NCBI GenBank assembly: GCA_951406725.2
Contig: OX597821.1
Location: 104,470,001 to 104,534,000 of the forward strand
Length of the DNA stretch: 64,000 nt
Origin: Octopus vulgaris
Taxonomy: Eukaryota
Direction of reading: 5' to 3'
The notes under the pieces are model-generated. The model worked only from the letters and a program-made list of their open reading frames with translations, was not told where the DNA came from and searched no databases. The number at the start of each line of letters is the position of its first letter. Position 1 is the stretch's first letter. The translations under genes and the position numbers were made by a program. Below, one piece after another: positions 9,981-60,622 of this stretch.

Positions 9981-9990
<10 letters not shown>

Positions 9991-10607
9991 TATATGTAGA
10001 AAAATACAAACTGGGACAAGAACGTAAAACATTTCGAAGATGATACAAAAAACACGAACAGGACATTCGAAGCCTTCAATCTTCAGTCAAGAACCGGATC
10101 ATCCTAGCATTTTCGGCTGATTAATCTTGAGATCGCTCCGATCCGGCCAGCCCCAAGGAAAAACTAAGCTACGAGCATTAGATTTCTTGGAAGAAAGATC
10201 GAATGTATACGAAACAGGGACAGAAAAACGGACGATACCACACGAATATAAAATACAAAAAACAATAATGGTAAAAACAAGACAAAAACAGCGGGTGTCT
10301 TACGGCTAATAAACAGTACAACAAGTTTAGCATTATTGTTTTTTTGTATTTTATATTCGTGTGGCATCGTCCGTTTTTCTGTCCCTGTTTCGTTAACATT
10401 CGATCCTTCTTCCAAGAAATCTAATGCTCGTAGCTTAGTTTTTCCTTGGGGCTGGCCAGATCGGAGCGATCTTAAGATTAATCAGCCGAAATTGCGAGGA
10501 TGATCCGGTTCTTGTCTGAAGATTGAAGGCTTCCGTGTTGTTTGTATCGTCTTCTAAATGTTTTACGTTCTTGTCCCAGTTTGTATTTTTCTACATATAA
10601 TATATAT
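9981..10607. repeat. Long inverted repeat (~280-290-bp arms, 60-bp spacer) with (TA)n ends
   Basis: Arm 9981-10270 is the reverse complement of 10331-10607, with few substitutions and one ~12-nt deletion. The ORF pair 10127-10309(+) / 10164-10415(-) is mirrored. Confidence 0.9.
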
Positions 10608-10812
10608 AGGCGTCGTCCGTACCCTAGTTGGCCTTATGTAAGTATATATATATATATATATATATACGAAACTGTCCGACGCACGGGGAGGTGAATCTCT
10701 GAGTAACAGTGTTTGTGATACTTATACTGCTTTTTAATAAAGCATATTACACTACCTCTGGTATTCGAGAACTATTTCCCCCACCTTGTTTCGCATTTAT
10801 GTGCATATTCTG

Positions 10813-12759: not shown

Positions 12760-14490
12760 ATATGTTGTAACATCCATCGTAAGAGAAGTGCAACACCAAA
12801 TTCTAACAACTAGTTAACTATTTTGTAAATCTCGTCGCTATAGGCTTCTTTGGGTGGAACGTATCAACTTTCCATTAAGTGGCTATTCTTCTTATATAAA
12901 TTGATTGTGCAGAACAAACTTGCAGTCTATATCTCACCAAGCGGAAAAAATGTTATCTGAAACTGCACTGTCTCTGCTGATCTAAACATATACTCTTATC
13001 TGAATACAATATGAATGATTTGAAGTGGTTGGCCGAAGATCGCATTGACACTAACGATAAATCCTATTGGTAAGTATCCAAGATTTGGAGCTGTTTCAGC
13101 AGGTTTTTCAGAGTTTTAAAGGTACTTTTCTATATACTTTCTCTATGCTATCTCTTGTACGTGCAATATACCCCTCCGGCCCGGGAGATTAATCACGGGT
13201 AACTGAAGCCTGTGTTTTCCCTACAAGAATCAGATCCTGACCGGTTACTTGCTTGAAGACAACGAGTTCGCTGTTATTTGAAACCAGCCCCACCATCTTA
13301 ATAAAAATATTGAGATCAATAATTTTCTGACCACACCTTGTTCCCTCCCTACCTACTGTTCGATCCGGTAAGAGTGAGACATGCGTATATTTGGCAAATT
13401 GTCTTGGAGCAATGCTAATGCAAGATTCATTCATGTCTACCACCATTTTGATCAAATGTATTTGATTCCCAGCCTAACATAATCCATTCGCATTTTATGC
13501 AGACGATTGTGAACATGTGCAAGTTTTCGGAAAACAAAGTGTTAAGTGATGGTTACTCTGGAAATGTATAACATATTTTCCCGTCATTATTACCCGAGTA
13601 ATATGCATTAAATGCTCAGCTACCGTTAGAATATTTGTATAAAGCTTGATGCCCGTCTCAAAAAAGGCGTATGTATGAAGCTGCTAACACTAGAAGACTG
13701 GGAGTCCAGAAATTGGGGCTGGTTACTTCGTAGAAATTCTCTGACAACTATTTCTGACAATCTCTGGAGGTATGGCGAAGAGACTATTGCTGCTGCCACA
13801 TATATGGTTTTCTAGAAACAACACTCTGATGTCAGGGATTAACCATAGTATACTGCAGTTTCACATAGTCCTCTCAATTGATTCTAACACTAGAAGACTG
13901 GGAGTCCAGAAATAGGGGTTGGTTACTTCGTAGAAATTCTCTGACAACTATTTCTGACAATCTCTGTAGGTATGGCGAAGAGACTATTGCTGCTGCCACA
14001 TATATGGTTTTCTAGAAACAACACTCTGATGTCAGGGATTAACCATAGTATACTGCAGTTTCACATAGTCCTCTCAATTGATTCTAACACTAGAAGACTG
14101 GGAGTCCAGAAATTGGGGTTGGTTACTTCGTAGAAATTCTCTGACAACTATTTCTGACAATCTCTGGAGGTATGGCGAAGAGACTATTGCTGCTGCCACA
14201 TATATGGTTTTCTAGAAACAACACTCTGATGTCAGGGATTAACCATAGTATACTGCAGTTTCACATAGTCCTCTCAATTGATTCTAACACTAGAAGACTG
14301 GGAGTCCAGAAATTGGGGTTGGTTACTTCGTAGAAATTCTCTGACAACTATTTCTGACAATCTCTGGAGGTATGGCGAAGAGACTATTGCTGCTGCCACA
14401 TATATGGTTTTCTAGAAACAACACTCTAATGTCAGGGATTAGCCATAGTATAATGCAGATTCACATAGTCCTCTCAATTGATTCTAAGTC
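12760..14490 (-). pseudogene. Probable Merlin (IS1595-like) DDE transposase relic
   Basis: Degenerate minus-strand motifs in the expected order: LIPD.., TIT*HFVFRK (cf. TxxDWxxFCRE), KMVVDMNES..KY (cf. VEIDES..KY), a weak GP stretch (cf. GPWVFG), SWILT (cf. GSxIxTD). Many frameshifts. Confidence 0.45.
13684..14487. repeat. Tandem array, exact 200-bp unit x4
   Basis: CTAACACTAGAAGACTGGGAG starts at 13684, 13884, 14084 and 14284; units are nearly identical; the array ends in CTAA at 14484-14487. Confidence 0.97.
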
Positions 14491-16668: not shown

Positions 16669-18515
16669 ATGTAGCAAGTGCCCACTCCGTTCGAAGTTTA
16701 AATCTATATTTCTTTATTTCCCACAGGGGGCTAATCATAAAGGAGACAAACAAGGACAGACAGAGGGATTAAGTCGATTATATCTACCCCAGTGCGTAAT
16801 TGGTACTTATGTAGCAAGTGCCCACTCCATTCGAAGTTTAAATCTATATTTCTTTATTTCCCACAGGGGGCCAATCATAATGGGCATAAACAAGGACAGA
16901 CAGAGGGATTAAGTCGATTATATCTACCCCAGTGCGTAATTGGTACTTATGTAGCAAGTGCCCACTCCATTCGAAGTTTAAATCTATATTTCTTTATTTC
17001 CCACAGGGGCTAATCATAATGGAGACAAACAAGGACAGACAGAGGGATTAAGTCGATTATATCTACCCCAGTGCGTAATTGGTACTTATGTAGCAAGTGC
17101 CCACTCAATTCGAAGTTTAAATCTATATTTCTTTATTTCCCACAGGGGCCAATCATAATGGGCATAAACAAGGACAGACAGAGGGATTAAGTCGATTATA
17201 TCTACCCCAGTGCGTAATTGGTACTTATGTAGCAAGTGCCCACTCCATTCGAAGTTTAAATCTATATTTCTTTATTTCCCACAGGGGGCTAATCATAAAG
17301 GAGACAAACAAGGACAGACAGAGGGATTAAGTCGATTATATCTACCCCAGTGCGTAATTGGTACTTATGTAGCAAGTGCCCACTCCATTCGAAGTTTAAA
17401 TCTATATTTCTTTATTTCCCACAGGGGGCCAATCATAATGGTTACAAACAAGGACAGGACAGAGGGATTAAGTCGATTATATCTACCCCAGTGCGTAATT
17501 GGTACTTATGTAGCAAGTGCCCACTCAATTCGAAGTTTAAATCTATATTTCTTTATTTCCCACAGGGGCCAATCATAATGGGCACAAACAAGGACAGACA
17601 GAGGGATTAAGTCGATTATATCTACCCCAGTGCGTAATTGGTACTTATGTAGCAAGTGCCCACTCCATTCGAAGTTTAAATCTATATTTCTTTATTTCCC
17701 ACAGGGGGCCAATCATAATGGGCATAAACAAGGACAGACAGAGGGATTAAGTCGATTATATCTACCCCAGTGCGTAATTGGTACTTATGTAGCAAGTGCC
17801 CACTCCATTCGAAGTTTAAATCTATATTTCTTTATTTCCCACAGGGGCTAATCATAATGGGCACAAACAAGGACAGACAGAGGGATTAAGTCGATTATAT
17901 CTACCCCAGTGCGTAATTGGTACTTATGTAGCAAGTGCCCACTCCATTCGAAGTTTAAATCTATATTTCTTTATTTCCCACAGGGGGCAATCATAACAAA
18001 ACAAGGACAGACAGAGGGATTAAGTCGATTATATCTACCCCAGTGCGTAATTGGTACTTATGTAGCAAGTGCCCACTCCATTCGAAGTTTAAATCTATAT
18101 TTCTTTATTTCCCACAGGGGCTAATCATAAAGGAGACAAACAAGGACAGACAGAGGGATTAAGTCGATTATATCTACCCCAGTGCGTAACTGGTACTTAT
18201 GTAGCAAGTGCCCACTCCATTCGAAGTTTAAATCTATATTTCTTTATTTCCCACAGGGGGCCAATCATAATGGGCATAAACAAGGACAGACAGAGGGATT
18301 AAGTCGATTATATCTACCCCAGTGCGTAATTGGTACTTATGTAGCAAGTGCCCACTCCATTCGAAGTTTAAATCTATATTTCTTTATTTCCCACACAGGG
18401 CAATCATAAAGGAGACAAACAAGGACAGACAGAGGGATTAAGTCGATTATATCTACCCCAGTGCGTAATTGGTACTTATGTAGCAAGTGCCCACCGCCTT
18501 TCAAAGTTTAAATCT
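16669..18515. repeat. Tandem array, ~134-141-bp unit x13.3, built from a MetaSINE 3' tail plus ~36 bp of flank
   Basis: GTAGCAAGTGCCCAC occurs 14 times (16671, 16811, 16951, 17090 ... 18341, 18480). About 100 bp of each unit is the reverse complement of SINE tail A (compare 22376-22477). Confidence 0.97.
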
Positions 18516-23867: not shown

Positions 23868-24065
23868 TGCCATAAGTAGTTGCACGAACACTAAGCCGCT
23901 GCATGTAACTCAGCGGAAACACCTACGAGCTAGTGCAAGTGATAGCTTAATTCCTGTTCATTTGTCACACATTAATTATCGTATATACCACCAAGCTGTC
24001 ATCATTGAGCGCTAAATCCAGAATTTGTTTTGTTTTATTCCTACTCTGTTTATTTTTTCTTAATC

Positions 24066-24101
24066 CTTTCTGTTGAAGAGCGTAGGCTGGAAACGTAAAA
24101 G
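24066..24101 (+). ncRNA. Minimal HHR variant (CTGTTGA core) in a ~170-bp cassette ending in (TA)n
   Basis: CTTT-CTGTTGA-AGAGC(GTAG)GCTG-GAAA-CG-TA-AAAG. Confidence 0.55.
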
Positions 24102-24190
24102 ACTTCCTCTCTTTCCCTAGTGTCAAACTAATGCACCTCTGTGTTGTACATCCACCTGTCTTCGCTTTTTTGTTTGTCTGTAAAATTCAA

Positions 24191-25018: not shown

Positions 25019-25451
25019 TACTCTTTTACTCTCTTTTACTTGTTTCAATCATTTGACTGCGGCCATGCTTGGAGCACTGCCTCTAATCGAGCAACTCGAC
25101 CCCGGGACTTATTCTTTTGTAAGCTCAGTACTTATTCTAACGGTATCTTTTGCCGAACCGCTAAGTAACGGGGACATAAACACACCAGCATTGGTTGTCA
25201 AGCAATGCTAGGGGGACAAACACAGACACACAAACACGCATATATATATGTTAAATCGTTAGCTCCTGCACGCATTTTTCTTCTCTCCTTGTTTCTCTCC
25301 GTGTTTCTTTTCTGTGTATCTTTCTGTTGAAGAGCGTAGGCTCGAAACGTAAAAGACTTGTTTTATTTCTATTCCTGAGCGCCATATTAATACAATTGTT
25401 TGTTTGTACTCCACCTGCCTTCGTCTTTTGTTTATTTTCGTAAGCTTCCCG

Positions 25452-25501
<50 letters not shown>

Positions 25502-29917: not shown

Positions 29918-30254
29918 TGTAGGCGTGTCAATGTGGTTGGAGGATGGCTTCTTAACGACATAATCTCGGGTTTTGTCTCACTGCGTGATGCCTTGGACGA
30001 CTGTTTTCTGACATGACCTTCACTGACTACAACACTGTGACTGGATTAGGTTGTGAGAAAGTGGAAGTGCCTAAGTATGCTTATATGTATGTGTGTGTGC
30101 CTCTGTCTTCCCTTGTCTAGACCGTTCCTTCCCCTATGTTTCCGACAAAGAGCTCCGCTCGAAACGTTCCTTCTTTCCTGAGCGTCCAATAATACTATAT
30201 ATGTTCCACGTCCTCGCGTTGTTGTGTTTTTTTGTGCTTTCTTGTTTGGATTAA

Positions 30255-30301
<47 letters not shown>

Positions 30302-30478: not shown

Positions 30479-30764
30479 CTACGTGCATTTATACGTCTAT
30501 GCACAGATAGGTGATTCTTTTATTCTTCTATTCTGTTACTTATTTCAGGTATTTGAATGTAGCCATGCTGGATCACCGGATTCAGTCGAGGGAATCCGAC
30601 CCAGAACTTATTCTTTGTAAGCTTAGTGCTAATTCTATAGGAATCTTTTTCTGAACCCCTAAGTTACAGGGACATGAACACACACACATCGGTTGTCTAG
30701 CGATGGTAATGGAGTCAAGCAGAGGCACAAAAATGCATACATATACAGACACACACGAGCATAA

Positions 30765-30799
<35 letters not shown>

Positions 30800-30829
30800 T
30801 GTATGTATGTATGTATGTATGTATGTATG

Positions 30830-30867
<38 letters not shown>

Positions 30868-31098
30868 CTACTAACAATATAGGATGAAGACCCTTTCTCT
30901 ACAGAAAAGGATTCCATCAAAAAGCGTGGCAGTATATTAAAAAACCTTTACGGTTGAAGTATAAACATCTTATAATTAAGGGCTAAAGAAGGTTATTCTA
31001 AAGCCAATACACTGATTTATCCACTTATAATCCACTTGTTACAGGAAAATTGAACTGAAAGCGGGCAACTAACCTTTAGAAAATTTAAATTTCGTTAT

Positions 31099-31159
31099 CT
31101 CTATATTGAATCAATTTCGGAATTAATCCCTATAAAGGATACATTCTTCTTCAGTAGAG
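31099..31159 (-). ncRNA. Type I hammerhead ribozyme
   Basis: CTCTA-CTGAAGA-AGAAT..ATCCTTTATAGGGAT..ATTCC-GAAA-TTGA(T)TCAA-TA-TAGAG. Confidence 0.8.
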
Positions 31160-31372
31160 CTTACGAGGTAATATAAATAAAATACTCACATGTGATCATG
31201 GAAAACGAAGAAGCTAAAAACACAACTACATTTAAGTACATCATTTATATCTAAAAATAAAAATTTTATTTTTATTTTTAGATATAAATGATGTACTTAA
31301 ATGTAGTTGTGTTTTTAGCTTCTGCTTTTTCCATAAACGCGTGTGAGTATTTTATTTATATTACCGCGTAAG

Positions 31373-31433
31373 CTCTACTGAAGAAGAATGTATCCTTTAT
31401 AGGGATTAATTCCGAAATTGATTTAATATAGAG
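31373..31433 (+). ncRNA. Type I hammerhead ribozyme
   Basis: CTCTA-CTGAAGA-AGAAT..ATTCC-GAAA-TTGA(T)TTAA-TA-TAGAG; mirror of 31099-31159. Confidence 0.8.
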
Positions 31434-31563
31434 ATAACGAAATTAAAATTTTCTAAAGGTTAGTTGCCAGCTTTCAGTTCAATTTTCCTGCAACAAGTGG
31501 ATTATAAGTGGATAAATCAGTGTATTGGCTTTAGAATAACCCTCTTTAGCCCTTAATTATAAG

Positions 31564-31607
<44 letters not shown>

Positions 31608-32630
31608 CATATATATATACATACATACATATATATATAAGGCTTTGGTCAGCCCGAGGCTATAGTAGAAGTCACTTGTCAAAAGTGCAAGGCAGTTGGA
31701 CTGAACGCGGAACCATGTGGTTGGGAAGCAAGCTCCTTACCATGGAGCCACTCCTGCGTATAATCTGTAATGCATTAAAAGTCAGATTGAATCTTGCTTG
31801 CTTGCAATGATACTGAGCCAAACCGGCGCATAATGGGTAGTCTCTGAAATTAATTTTATCTTGGATGGGAAGTAACTCTTACCTTTCGATTATGCAGTAA
31901 TTTGACAACGAAAAACTGTTTCTGTTTTCGCTTTTGTTAAACACAATATTTTAATCATTTAGAAATATTTTTTAGTAAATGAGATTTTAAAAATGTAAGT
32001 TCTTTGCACAATAAGTATTTATAATTTAGCTTTCTTTAAACAGGCAATATATTAATGGATTTTAAAGTTATTTTTAAGTGAATACCATTACAAATTCTTT
32101 TTTATGCATTAAAATTTCGTAAAAGACCCATTCATAACCACAGTGTGAAACAATTTTTTTCCATAAGTTTAATTCAAGTGCATTCAACACATCTCATTTC
32201 CAAAGATTCGTCTGCTATTTCTAGCACGCCTTGCTTCTAGCACTTAACAGCTATTTACGATAAAAGGCCTGAAACACCTGTTAAGAGGCAGCATATCGAG
32301 CAAGAAATAGCAGCCAAATCTTACTTTTTCTAGGGAAAGGAGCTGCTTATACTTGATTTCGATGTCACATTCGTTGAAAGCATGCAAAATAACCTGGGGA
32401 AAAAAGAAAAAAAAAACACAAAATAAATTTCCGTGGCTGGGAAACTCAGACTGTGTCGGTGAGCAAACGGGTCACGGGTAGTCTGGTAATTATTTATATA
32501 TCAGAAAATAAAATTTTGATTCTATACAGTCTGCGAGACTTAGGTCTGGAAAGTGAATAAATGTAAATATATCAAGCAATTCTCTTCATTCGCTTTATAA
32601 CAACAACAACGACGGCAACAATAATAATAC

Positions 32631-39735: not shown

Positions 39736-40721
39736 TCCAGCATGGCCGCAGTAAAATGAATGAAGTAAATAAAAAAGATAAAAAGTTCACTTTAGATGCT
39801 GTATGTTATGAAATTATAATACAATGGTTCAATTTAATTTCATTGCAACGTATGCCTTATTCCAATAGAATGGCCCCAAACTCCCTATATTACAGTAGTT
39901 CCATGTTAGTCGTTCCAATCTGATTTTGAATTTATTTCAAGTGAGTTACTTGTAATTTCTGCCAGTATCAAAATATTCTTCACGAATATTTACTCTTAAT
40001 TTGCGCTTTACGTGACTTTTCGCTTCTAGGGTTTGCGTCAATATGCTGTCATGTGCTTTTCGAAGCGCATTCGTATGTATATATATGTATATAACCAGTT
40101 GCCATGCACGATCGCTAAATCCGCAAGTTGCTTTTTTATCATTCCCTCTCTGTTTATTTTCTTTTATTCCTCTCTGTTTAAAGAGCGTAAAAGACTTCCT
40201 CCGTTCCGAGCGTCAGACTAATACACCTGATTGTTATACATACACCCGTTCTCGAGTTTTGGTTTTCTGTAAATTTCAACAAATACATATATGTATATAA
40301 TACAGTGTACATTTAAACACATAAGGAATTCACTCATGGAATTCAACACGCTAGAAAGAACAGCTATATTCTATAAACACAAAAATTAGGGATAAATTTC
40401 GACAGGAACTAAATGAAAAAATAAAAACATTTTACCATCTAATTTCCTGGACAAATTGGTTTCTGATTTTAGTTTAGCAAGTAAATAATCTTTACCCGCA
40501 AGGTGAAATCGTTTTCAACAGGTACACCTTAGATTAAATATATAAACACGATGCGATCAACTATGTGCCTCTTGTTTCTACATCCTAATTTTTTCAAAAT
40601 CTACGGCGCAGATGCAGTCCTTCGCCTTCAATAAAAAAATGCCAACTTTTATAAACCGAAAATTATCCAAAAACTTACAATATTTAATCATATCAAAAGG
40701 AAATGGAAATTAATAGAAATG

Positions 40722-40826
40722 TTCACTTCCAGTGGCCTAGCGTGTAAAAATTTAGTGAAAGACTATTTAATGACTAATACATAGTCTTTGGACTAAATTT
40801 CTACACGCTAGGTCACTGAAAATGAA
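40722..40826. other. 105-nt hairpin (~45-bp stem, 14-nt loop)
   Basis: TTCACTTCCAGTGGCCTAGCGTGTAAAAATTTAGTGAAAGACTAT pairs with ATAGTCTTTGGACTAAATTTCTACACGCTAGGTCACTGAAAATGAA. Confidence 0.85.
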
Positions 40827-42120
40827 AATACGCCTTATCGTTTGATTACCGATGCCAAGTTCAGTGGAATGCCTCCGAGCAGAGCAATCCGGTTTCGGTA
40901 TCAAAGTAAGTTTTACGCGTTCCACATTTTCCGGGGTCTGTCGCGTTCGTGCACCATATTCATATTTATTTACCTATCAAGATTAAAACATTCTTTTTCA
41001 CAAACTAGACATATTTGTTGTTAGATTCCGAGCAATTTAATTGAACATTTTGAGCCTTTCTAGTTACTTCAATAAATATTAAATACTTTCGTTTATATGG
41101 TCGTTTCAACTTTCATATAATTTTCTTCATAATGTTCCATCTTAGTTTCTTTTGCTATTCTACCACTTTTGTATTACTCCACAACATTAACCCATTTATG
41201 CTCCATCTACTTACGACAAGCATACAAATGAAACGTAATCATTTAATTCTTCTCCGTGTTTTCCCATCCCGTCACAATGTCTTCTTAAGGCGCTTTCTAT
41301 AACCTAATTTTTGAAATCTCTAAATTCTACAGGTTTTTGTAACACCAGTCCCCCTTTGTTATATGTCACCATACCAATAACACGTTCTACCGAAAACCCG
41401 TTGATGTATCATTAAAGCAATAAATATTTGACTAACGATAGAACTACTTGGTAAATAATTTGTTTTCACATTCGAATTCCTATCAAAACATCCGCATTTG
41501 CTCATTTTCGTCCCGTATATTTCGTTTGCTACTTCCCGATGATAGAAATACATAAGTACAGACATCATTTATTACACCTCCATATTTTTCTATCTCTTTA
41601 CAACTTCCTTGTAAGCCTGCTTCTATAATTTTAAAGTCTTGCATTTTATTTCATTAACTTAACGTTTTAATAATATATATTTTTGAAAATATATCCGTTC
41701 TTAATTTTCACGTCTTTTATACAATAGGTTTGTTTTACTGAATTGCACAACATTTTTGTGCCTGGTCTTCATACATCAATAACGGATAAGATTCCTTCCT
41801 ACTCATCTGTCACATACGTTAAGATATTCGCAAAAGCCTTTTAATTCTGAAGTAAATGTAATTTCCAGTGTTTGTAATCGTGACCAGACACAAAGCTCGG
41901 CTTCTTTTCTAATAACTCAGGCAATATTCGTACGTGTATTTAGTTCATTTTATACCTGTTATATAAGGCTAACTTGGAAACTTGAAAAAGACATGTAATT
42001 ATGTTTTATATTAGTTATTCAGGCAGTAACTCATCCTGCGTGATTAGAACGACGCGGTCTCTGTCAAACGTATAGTTCTGCTAATCATTGCAGTTAACCA
42101 CATATGCATAAAGACACACA

Positions 42121-50564: not shown

Positions 50565-51394
<830 letters not shown>

Positions 51395-58287: not shown

Positions 58288-59232
58288 TCATTCAGTAGTT
58301 TTATTTTTATAGCGTGCTTTCACTTCACTACCGAGCGCAGCTCTGTGTGCCTTAGGTATGTGCTGTGATACTCTGATGGTTATTGTATGGAAAGTGTTCT
58401 GCGTAGTGTGTGTGCAGTGCCTAGTAGTGCAATTTTCTGTATGTTATATGTGTTTGTAAGTCCTGGTGTTTTTGTTATGTATTTGTCTGAATATTTTTTT
58501 ATCATGCCTAATGCACCTACTATGATAGGAATTGTTTCTGTTTTTAGATTCCACATTCTGGTTACCTCTATTTCCAGGTCTTTGTATTTTGAAAGTTTCT
58601 CCATTTCTTTTAGAGACACGTTGTCATCTGCCGGTATTGATACATCAATTAGAAAGCATTTTTTTCTTCATGATCTCTGACAACTATATCTGGTCTGTTG
58701 GACTTAATTTCTCTATCTGTGTGTATCGGCATATCCCAGAGTATGGTTGCTTTCTCGTTTTCTGTGACCTTTTCTGGTGTGTGCCTATACCATCTTTTCT
58801 TTGCTGTTATTCCATAATGTTGGCATAGCTTCCAGTGTATGTAGGTTCCAACTCTGTCATGTCTGTGAATATATTCCTTCTTAGCTAGGACTGGGCAGCC
58901 AGAGATAATATGATTTATTGTTTCTTGTCCATCTCCACATATTCTGCAGTTACTTGTTATATTTCTCTTCATTACATGTTTTTGGTAATTTCTGGTGGGG
59001 AGGCTTTGGTCTTGTGCTGCAATTAAAAATCCCTCTGTTTCTGCTTTGAGTCCTGAGCTTCTCAACCATTGCTGGGATTTTTGTTTGTCTATTTCTTTTG
59101 CGTTTAGTTTAGTCCAGTATTTACCATGAAGGGGCTTTTCTTGCCATCGTTTTATCATGGTTCGTTGCTGTTCTGTTTTTAGTTTGGATTTCATTTGTTT
59201 TATAGCTTTTGTTGTTTCTTCCTTTTCTTCTT
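58288..59232 (-). mobile_element. 5'-truncated Dong/R4-clade non-LTR retrotransposon (restriction-like endonuclease domain) in (TAA)n
   Basis: ORFs 58649-59194 and 58380-58619: LHGKY, AAQDQ, CRIC..ETINHIISGC (CCHC), RHD, NRPDIVV, KLSKYKDL, PIIVGALG. Flanked by (TTA)n at 58195-58283 and TTA/TTC repeats at 59230-59320. Confidence 0.92.
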
Positions 59233-59320: not shown

Positions 59321-60622
59321 AAGGTCACTATCTCGAATCGAACTCGGAATCTTGGGGTTAGTAGCCCACGCGTTTAACCACTATGCCTTATGCCAGTGGG
59401 CAATTAAGGAGTGCATTTTTAGGGCTTATATATCTAATATTCTCTTATCCCTCCTTAATACCGGTTCCCATATGCAGTTCATATCTGCTCTCGATTTGCT
59501 TGGGACGTTGTTGTGTCCTAGCATATGTGATACTTCTTCTAGTTTTCATAAATCCCAGTGGTTTTCTAGTTCTATTATTTTAGCTTCATGCCACAGGTAG
59601 AGGTGATCTCCCTTTTATCATACAATATCTGATATAAGCGATTATTCAATATTTCCCGGTGTCACAGCTTTGCGATGTTCCTCGACCCTTATTTTGAGGG
59701 AGCGGTATGTTTCGTCTTTGTATAACCTACCACAGCTGCATGGAATGGAGTACACACAGTTCTTGGTCATATTCTCTTCTATTGGTAGTTTTATTCAAAG
59801 GAGATATTTGCGAAGTGTTGTATTATACTTGAATACTGTACTGATGTCATATGGGCCGCATATCTTTTGTATCTTTTCGGAGAGGCCTCTCACATAGGGT
59901 AGACAGACTGTGGACAGTTTATCGCTTTCATCCTCTCTTTTCTTCATAATTAGAGAGGAGAGTATGCTTTTGGGTTAGTTGTTGCTTAACAGATTGTTAC
60001 TGAGCTTGATCATTTCTTCGTGGTGGGTATCACAACCGCTACTTATATTCATTGCTTGCGGTATAGGGATGTCCTGAATTCATACTTGGTGCGCGTTATT
60101 AATACGTCCAGGAACTCTAGCTAATTGTCTTTTTCTTTTTCCATTGTGAACTGTACGAATGGCGTTATTGAGTTCACAAGATCTAGCAGCATTTGAACAT
60201 CATCCTGGTGGGGCCAGAGTATGAAGGTGTCATCAACGTATCGCAGCCATATGGTTGGTTTTAGTAGTAATGATCCTAACGTCAAATTCTCAAAGTATTC
60301 CGTGTATATATTGGCTATCATCAGTGATAATGGTGAAACTATAGCTAAACACTCATCTTGTTGATATATATCAAGGTCTATGCTGAAGTAGATAGTTTCT
60401 ACATAGAAGGTCAACATTTCTATCAAGTTTCTTATTGGTCTGCTATTGCGTTTTTTTAGATGGGTATCGGTAACTAGTTTTTCTTGAATCGCCGATAGTG
60501 CTTCATCAGTTGGCAGTTTGGTGAACAGACTTATCGTTTCTAGACACATCATCTGGTTGAATTCAATGGGGGTAGTCTTGATTCTTGATCAATTCGGTGA
60601 AGTGGGTGAAATTCTTCAAGTA
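59321..60622 (-). mobile_element. 5'-truncated Penelope-like element (RT and GIY-YIG), disrupted
   Basis: ORF 60121-60552: SLFT, SPLS..IAN, WLRYVDDTF, QFTMEKE. Downstream are VCLPYVRGLSEKI and TKNCVYSIPCSCGRLYKDETYRSLKIRVEEH (GIY-YIG). Confidence 0.9.
59323..59387 (-). other. tRNA-like module (A/B boxes) at the PLE 3' end; not a functional tRNA
   Basis: GGCATAGTGGTTAAACGCG-TGGG-CTACTAA-CCCCA-AGATTCCGAGTTCGATTCGAG; anticodon-like ACT; no convincing acceptor stem. Confidence 0.65.

Follow-up and report, generated by a model that had tools for sequence, protein, structure and literature searches.

An insert at positions 30868-31565 of the window, by which we mean the whole 64-kb stretch of Octopus vulgaris DNA analysed here, is probably the scar of a single Penelope-like element (PLE) insertion, with two ends of the element lying head to head. 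The geometry of the insert, its hammerhead motifs, the host SINE, the family membership of arm and tail, and the ending of other copies in (TA)n were all observed, in the window or in public contigs. The parts of the insert and its flanks are as follows.

30515-30730, minus strand: 3' part of the host SINE.
30766-30867, no strand: (TATG)n/(TA)n microsatellite of the SINE on the left-hand side.
30868-30966, minus strand: one-sided tail of 99 nt continuing the left arm, family sequence and not host DNA (outer limit, 30868, uncertain by one TA).
30967-31264, minus strand: left arm, which is the pseudo-LTR-like end segment (~300 nt) of a high-copy repeat and has its 3' end outward.
31099-31159, minus strand: minimal type I hammerhead of the left arm; cleavage is predicted after 31104, and helix III is a perfect palindrome.
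31265-31267, no strand: loop, TTT, at the head-to-head junction in an A/T-only tract.
31268-31565, plus strand: right arm, an inverted copy with 12 mismatches to the left arm, ending directly in (TA)n.
31373-31433, plus strand: minimal type I hammerhead of the right arm; a single change from G-C to G-U weakens its helix III, and cleavage is predicted after 31428.
31566-31639, no strand: (TA)n microsatellite of the SINE on the right-hand side.
31640-31758, minus strand: 5' part of the host SINE, without ~42 nt next to (TA)n.

The ~600-bp palindrome of the original prediction is real, although the arms of ~297 bp and the loop of ~5 nt given for it were off by 1-2 nt. The arms, of 298 nt apiece, are complementary at 286 of 298 positions and differ by mismatches without indels, which amounts to an arm divergence of 4%. 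The inner 56 nt of both arms contain no mismatch (the chance of a first mismatch so late is 0.08), and six of the 12 mismatches are bunched at arm positions 57-74, within 18 nt (P 0.0014). The tract around the junction contains short (TAAAAA)-type repeats and provides A/T microhomology. Both arms terminate in CCCTTAATTATAAGAT, which confirms an earlier claim. The right arm then passes straight into (TA)n, and the left arm continues into the tail, which has no mirror counterpart on the right; the limits previously assigned to the insert, 30967..31565, took in the arms correctly but omitted this extension. The polarity of the insert, with its 3' ends outward, was read from the hammerhead strand and not from a reading frame. 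Six-frame translation of arm and tail gave no long open frame, the only open frame of 100 aa from either being one that spans microsatellite, and the insert contains no RT plus GIY-YIG frame. Outside the insert, neither arm nor tail recurs in the 64-kb window.

Self-comparison of the window revealed a second fold-back at 9982-10608. Its arms of ~290 nt are identical at 269 of 282 aligned positions, with one 12-nt indel and a 49-nt spacer, and (TA)n lies on both sides. A tail of 34 nt is present on one side only (10609-10642), and the element has an outward hammerhead-core-like motif without a clean helix I. The two fold-backs have no similarity to each other (local score 23; shuffled mean 21, maximum 33), so at least two families in this window show fold-back together with a tail on one side. 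It is scarcely credible that the palindrome is a fold-back artefact of assembly. The perfect inner 56 nt would suit such an artefact, as would the fact that no aligned contig spans the whole stretch, but the arms carry 12 differences with half of them bunched, the mirror is limited to 298 nt, beyond which the remaining half of the host SINE follows in colinear order, and the second fold-back nearby has its own spacer and indel.

The insert splits one minus-strand SINE at its central (TA)n tract, confirming its predicted position within a SINE microsatellite. The flanks match, in colinear order, the two halves of a SINE that is seen five more times in the window. The part to the right of the insert lacks ~42 nt beside (TA)n at the 31640 junction; these are whole in four and nearly whole in one of the five other copies, and their absence may reflect a target deletion on insertion or a later loss. 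No target-site duplication is readable at this insertion site, which is a microsatellite. The SINE and microsatellite landscape of the window presumably is of a cephalopod kind.

The missing SINE segment also bears on an event at the DNA level, either a fold-back (MITE-like) transposon or a later inverted duplication of a solo repeat by replication fold-back at the A/T tract. Such an event would account for an inverted repeat that runs the whole length of the arms in a TA-rich target, for the A/T microhomology at the junction and for the absent ~42 nt. We give it a slim chance, however, since the ends are made asymmetric by a tail derived from the family, the limit of the mirror coincides exactly with the end of other family copies, flanking host DNA is not mirrored, and hammerheads mark PLEs and not MITEs. 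A MITE or fold-back DNA transposon as such was rejected, because symmetric termini are absent and the 99-nt tail stands on one side.

Part of the left arm and tail was contained in 20 of the 24 public runs listed, which came from nine studies and four organism codes. Four of the 24 runs were aligned to a target that joins 23 nt of the right arm to the left arm and its tail. This gave 619 (X1), 526 (X3), 218 (X12) and 72 (X8) contigs from three organism codes at 85-100% identity. The records are contigs only, with the junction left out as a repeat; their summed depth does not equal copy number, and X8, which we guess to be RNA, is uninformative about expression, strand, cleavage and editing. 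In all four runs, contigs covered the tail, and covered the left arm as far as the junction region, reaching within ~16 nt of the loop; some bridge tail and arm (for example X1 record 1 and X3 record 17). Judging from these contigs, arm and tail belong to a high-copy dispersed family.

The depth of the contigs changes at the boundary between tail and arm. From bin 30942-30956 to bin 30972-30986 it rises 31-fold in X3, 2.5-fold in X1, 2.7-fold in X12 and 1.8-fold in X8; the step is not uniform, as the outer tail bins of X1 are as deep as the adjoining arm. Loose ends at 30960 run into (TA)n-like letters in eight contigs of X3 (agreement 0.68) and one of X8, the loose-end observations being drawn from 24 of 157 rows. 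By these contigs, some family copies end at the arm boundary and others include the tail. Beyond the tail, X1 record 1 (964 nt) and X3 record 17 (963 nt) continue for ~840 further letters, and one contig each of X1 and X12 has the same 30-letter continuation. The ~840 letters may be the body of the element or one shared locus; an 18-nt motif from the continuation had no match in the window.

The contigs also allow the two arms to be compared with their family, taking the left arm as the reference. The right arm has the family letter at two of the 12 mismatches. At the other ten, no variant row toward the right-arm letter was seen at a 5% threshold, which hides rare subfamilies, and the left arm is apparently family-like there. 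The split of ten against two has P 0.04, or P 0.07 when counted as events (seven against one). This bias hints at two closely related templates or at uneven repair. At 31169/31363, both arms have a letter that is absent from every aligned contig covering that place, which fits a common template of both arms.

The scan with a hammerhead descriptor (core, GAAA, stems I-III) found one type I hammerhead per arm, with core, GAAA and stems as claimed by the original prediction. These two were the only matches in 64 kb, and the same descriptor gave one match in total on 30 block-shuffled windows. Both hammerheads have the core CTGAAGA, GAAA and stem I CTCTA/TAGAG; stem III is TTGA/TCAA in the left arm and TTGA/TTAA in the right. 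Helix I has 5 bp, helix II is long and interrupted by an internal loop, and helix III is palindromic (5+1+5 nt) and, in a monomer, could form 4 bp capped by a triloop. The two hammerheads are one motif duplicated by inversion. The Rfam check suggested with the original prediction did not return them: no family reached the gathering score in the 64-kb window, and the 25 matches over the insert up to E 10 included no hammerhead family. These sub-gathering matches, mostly miRNA hairpin models on the A/T-rich centre, were dismissed as generic hairpin matches. Pieces of the hammerhead, 24 nt or 20 nt long, had no exact match among metagenome, prokaryote genome and viral contigs.

The junction of the core with helix II can be read in two registers. 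In one, an A-C pair is open; in the other, an unpaired A follows A9, G10.1 pairs with C11.1 and a C is bulged. The previously described A-C mismatch at the first stem II pair corresponds to the register favoured by nearest-neighbour energy, by 2.7-3.4 kcal/mol, but the alternative with G10.1-C11.1 and a bulged C is possible. An extra base after A9 together with G10.1-C11.1 is the form described for PLE hammerheads (PMC4209133). The A at this junction is the majority letter in the aligned family contigs, which makes it a trait of the family and not a decay of the palindrome copy. Loose contig ends point to related subfamilies with another loop II, and a canonical core is seen in X12. In all four runs, contig depth is highest where GAAA and helix III lie, and none of the nine variant sites listed for the 61-nt hammerhead falls at the 13 core positions, which alone is not significant (P 0.10).

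Overall, the hammerheads resemble the minimal type I hammerheads of metazoan PLEs (PMC4209133), with a short helix I, a long helix II, a palindromic helix III and, in the alternative register, a possible unpaired base between 9 and 10.1 with G10.1-C11.1. They differ from these in a longer helix III and in a helix II that has a bulged C or an open A-C, together with an internal loop. Pairs of minimal hammerheads lying on opposite strands at a distance of 100-700 bp were reported in 2014 as 'probably related to truncated PLEs', and such pairs in Schistosoma mansoni resemble the pair in the palindrome (PMC4209133).

We predicted how transcripts of the palindrome would fold. The expected ~300-bp hairpin was upheld as a prediction for read-through RNA, at -447 kcal/mol. 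Each strand carries a single hammerhead, which lies in the downstream arm, after its own complement. The predicted probability of stem I was 0.0 in full transcripts of both strands, contrary to the proposal that transcription from either side would yield a self-cleaving RNA, and it was still 0.0 when the read-through transcript stopped just past the ribozyme. In single-arm transcripts, the predicted probability of the left-arm hammerhead ranged from 0.07 to 0.97 over five starts and was 0.17 with the whole tail; stems I and II were predicted at 0.93-0.97 in three of the five truncated transcripts. The right-arm hammerhead was predicted at 0.09-0.12 in five of five starts and at 0.002 in the whole arm. 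The predicted energy of a helix III duplex with a second copy is -6.7 kcal/mol for the left arm and -2.3 kcal/mol for the right, in line with dimer function. In these models, the hammerheads of a read-through RNA are predicted to be locked in the hairpin, and the palindrome copy is probably inert, apart from possibly yielding dsRNA. Like any long inverted repeat, the hairpin could serve ADAR or Dicer as a substrate if it were transcribed.

The folding predictions bear on the proposal that the insert is a non-coding, ambisense-ribozyme retroelement. Its non-coding, retroelement-derived and PLE-like character stands; the ambisense and retrozyme part, by which a retrozyme- or viroid-like element would make self-cleaved circular rod RNAs from either strand, we consider very improbable. 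The hammerhead core is intact on both strands, the predicted fold is rod-like, and stems I and II of the left arm reach high predicted probability in most of the truncated transcripts. Viroid-like rod RNAs have ribozyme motifs in both polarities and a rod-like fold, as the palindrome does. Unlike them, however, the palindrome is chromosomal DNA whose ribozymes are copies of each other and whose rod is a near-perfect inverted duplication, and it has no means of releasing a unit-length monomer, as one ribozyme per strand does not allow such a monomer to be excised. The analogy with viroid-like rods fails on this single site per strand and on the sequestration of the ribozyme in the predicted hairpin, and a viroid-like ambisense RNA was rejected on the same grounds, with the stem I prediction for full transcripts.

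The retrozyme part of the proposal fares no better. Non-LTR retrozymes and the palindrome are alike in being non-coding, with an AT-rich unit of ~300 nt, a type I hammerhead and a relation to PLEs, but the units of a retrozyme repeat head to tail and carry the ribozyme on a single strand, whereas those of the palindrome are inverted, with one ribozyme per strand (PMC7229834; bioRxiv 10.64898/2026.07.22.740005). Tandem units define non-LTR retrozymes in both sources, and no tandem direct repeat of the unit was found at the palindrome locus. A retrozyme identity was rejected for this locus, where the required head-to-tail units with same-strand hammerheads are absent. The low predictions for the right-arm motif and for read-through RNA also argue against self-cleaved circles. 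Minimal hammerheads in the pseudo-LTRs of PLEs are described as inactive when monomeric and as weakly cleaving when dimeric (PMC4209133), and the PLE hammerhead as protein-assisted and dispensable for insertion in vitro (PMC11167929).

A PLE insertion would account for the asymmetry of the insert as well as for its inversion. Five of eight features of a PLE insertion unit were found at the palindrome: a minimal type I hammerhead in a terminal segment, a head-to-head inverted copy, a one-sided tail, a (TA)n target and a dispersed multicopy family. The other three features of such a unit are an RT plus GIY-YIG frame linked to some family member, 5' truncation that varies between copies, and a target-site duplication, which is optional in PLEs. 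In PLEs, an inverted 5'-truncated copy, a one-sided tail of 30-40 bp and a bias to microsatellites are described (PMC8557442), and this anatomy is also given in PMC8969392. Published accounts treat an arrangement like that of the palindrome as a side product of truncated PLE insertion (PMC4209133, PMC8557442, PMC3846280). For Penelope, the one-sided tail and the (TA)n bias of insertions are reported together with palindromes at head-to-head junctions, for which self-priming was proposed, and with small RNAs on Penelope copies (PMC3846280). Biochemical work found that both target strands are cleaved and extended, with an AT-rich preference, and that two RT start sites bound the tail (PMC11167929). 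Recently active Penelope families are reported in Octopus vulgaris (PMC13282606).

Compared with the insertion units of endonuclease-bearing PLEs, the palindrome has the same head-to-head inversion, palindromic junction, one-sided tail and AT-rich or (TA)n target. The hammerhead likewise lies in the terminal segment, and the arm length is on the order of that of pseudo-LTRs (181-218 bp in Adineta vaga). The palindrome differs in that both arms are truncated to ~300 nt with no reading frame left, and in its tail of 99 nt, about three times the usual length of the published tails (30-40 nt). In the anole PLE, the open frame begins in the hammerhead, and none does so in the palindrome.

By analogy with published PLE biochemistry, from which we infer the enzyme, the order of the steps and the inertness of the copy, an RT/GIY-YIG protein encoded at another locus would nick the (TA)n target. 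Reverse transcription would start at either of two internal sites, giving a tail on one side and none on the other, and synthesis would halt after ~300 nt in the A/T-rich tract. The two 5'-truncated ends would be joined by fold-back self-priming or, alternatively, through an encounter with another cDNA that was primed on the complementary strand. As passengers of the pseudo-LTR, the hammerheads would need a dimer partner or a protein. The 99-nt tail predicts two RT start sites ~100 nt apart.

Other elements of the window were inspected for relatives of the insert. A ~210-nt insert lies in (TA)n of another SINE copy (25245-25455), with a relative at 24047-24175, and a minimal hammerhead-like motif with one core change lies at 25318-25357 (relaxed scan, with 0-2 matches per shuffle, and weak alone). 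A short segment at 30090-30258 ends in (TA)n and contains a more decayed minimal-hammerhead-like stretch, seen by eye and missed by the scans. A decayed RT frame at 60121-60588 on the minus strand matched Pfam RVT_1 at E 0.008, below the cut-off, and its Atlas neighbours were RVT_1 and HTH_animal at 0.92-0.95. The broken frames that follow the RT fragment (~59450-60600, minus strand) resemble a Penelope GIY-YIG end; Pfam gave no match on two 50-aa pieces downstream of the fragment, and the retroelement frame at ~59450-60600 has no DNA similarity to the palindrome.

The window also contains an imperfect palindrome of ~110 nt (40719-40829, 80%), possibly a small MITE-like element, and fragments of non-LTR retrotransposons with zf-RVT at 833-1909 (Pfam E 1.8e-8) and 58649-59230 (1.8e-6). 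Homogeneous tandem arrays are present at 13684-14487 (200 nt x 4.0, 98%) and 16669-18515 (139 nt x 13.3, 95%). A further array at 50565-51317 (384 nt x 2.0, 100%) could have arisen by duplication in the assembly. Hammerhead scans of these three arrays found none. A bacterial promoter scan gave three sites versus 4.6 expected, from a bacterial model that is not applicable to an animal genome.

A different history is that the palindrome itself moves. The family would then be a non-autonomous Penelope derivative with a ~100-nt tail, in which the whole palindrome, with a fixed centre and a bidirectional promoter at the junction, is copied as a mobile unit and seeds many near-perfect hairpins of ~300 bp. 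We give this a small but real chance. Arm and tail lack an open frame, the loop has only 3 nt beside the identical inner 56 nt, and coverage comes to within ~16 nt of the loop in all four runs. One contig seemingly ends at the loop: X8 record 31 has 18 unaligned letters that would end about there, which would fit a fixed boundary. The letter shared by the arms at 31169/31363 and present in no covering contig would also suit a mobile palindrome, but it is equally expected from a single insertion event. Depth falls steadily over ~80 nt before the junction in all four runs, as variable 5' truncation predicts, although edge and low-complexity effects fit this fall too. No strand-change joints are listed among the aligned contigs, from which the junction was left out as a repeat. 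The same fold-back in an unrelated family of the window argues for a general property of insertion. If the centre were fixed, transcripts initiated at the junction would give free, dimer-competent hammerheads, and read-through would supply ADAR or small-RNA pathways with long dsRNA; the family would be a new non-autonomous form of PLE and a dispersed source of long dsRNA.

The literature searched, on octopus hammerheads, on octopus Penelope, SINE and microsatellite sequences, and on A-to-I editing, inverted repeats and Penelope in cephalopods, contained no description of the palindrome family, which may already be catalogued in repeat libraries or supplements. Apart from its unusually long tail, the palindrome would be an ordinary PLE insertion unit. 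Read as a PLE scar, it is an ordinary trace of insertion with little significance in itself. It is nevertheless a clean example for how PLEs form head-to-head junctions, and its useful traits are the low divergence of the arms, the private letter that they share, the ten of 12 differences that apparently belong to one arm, and the tail of triple length.
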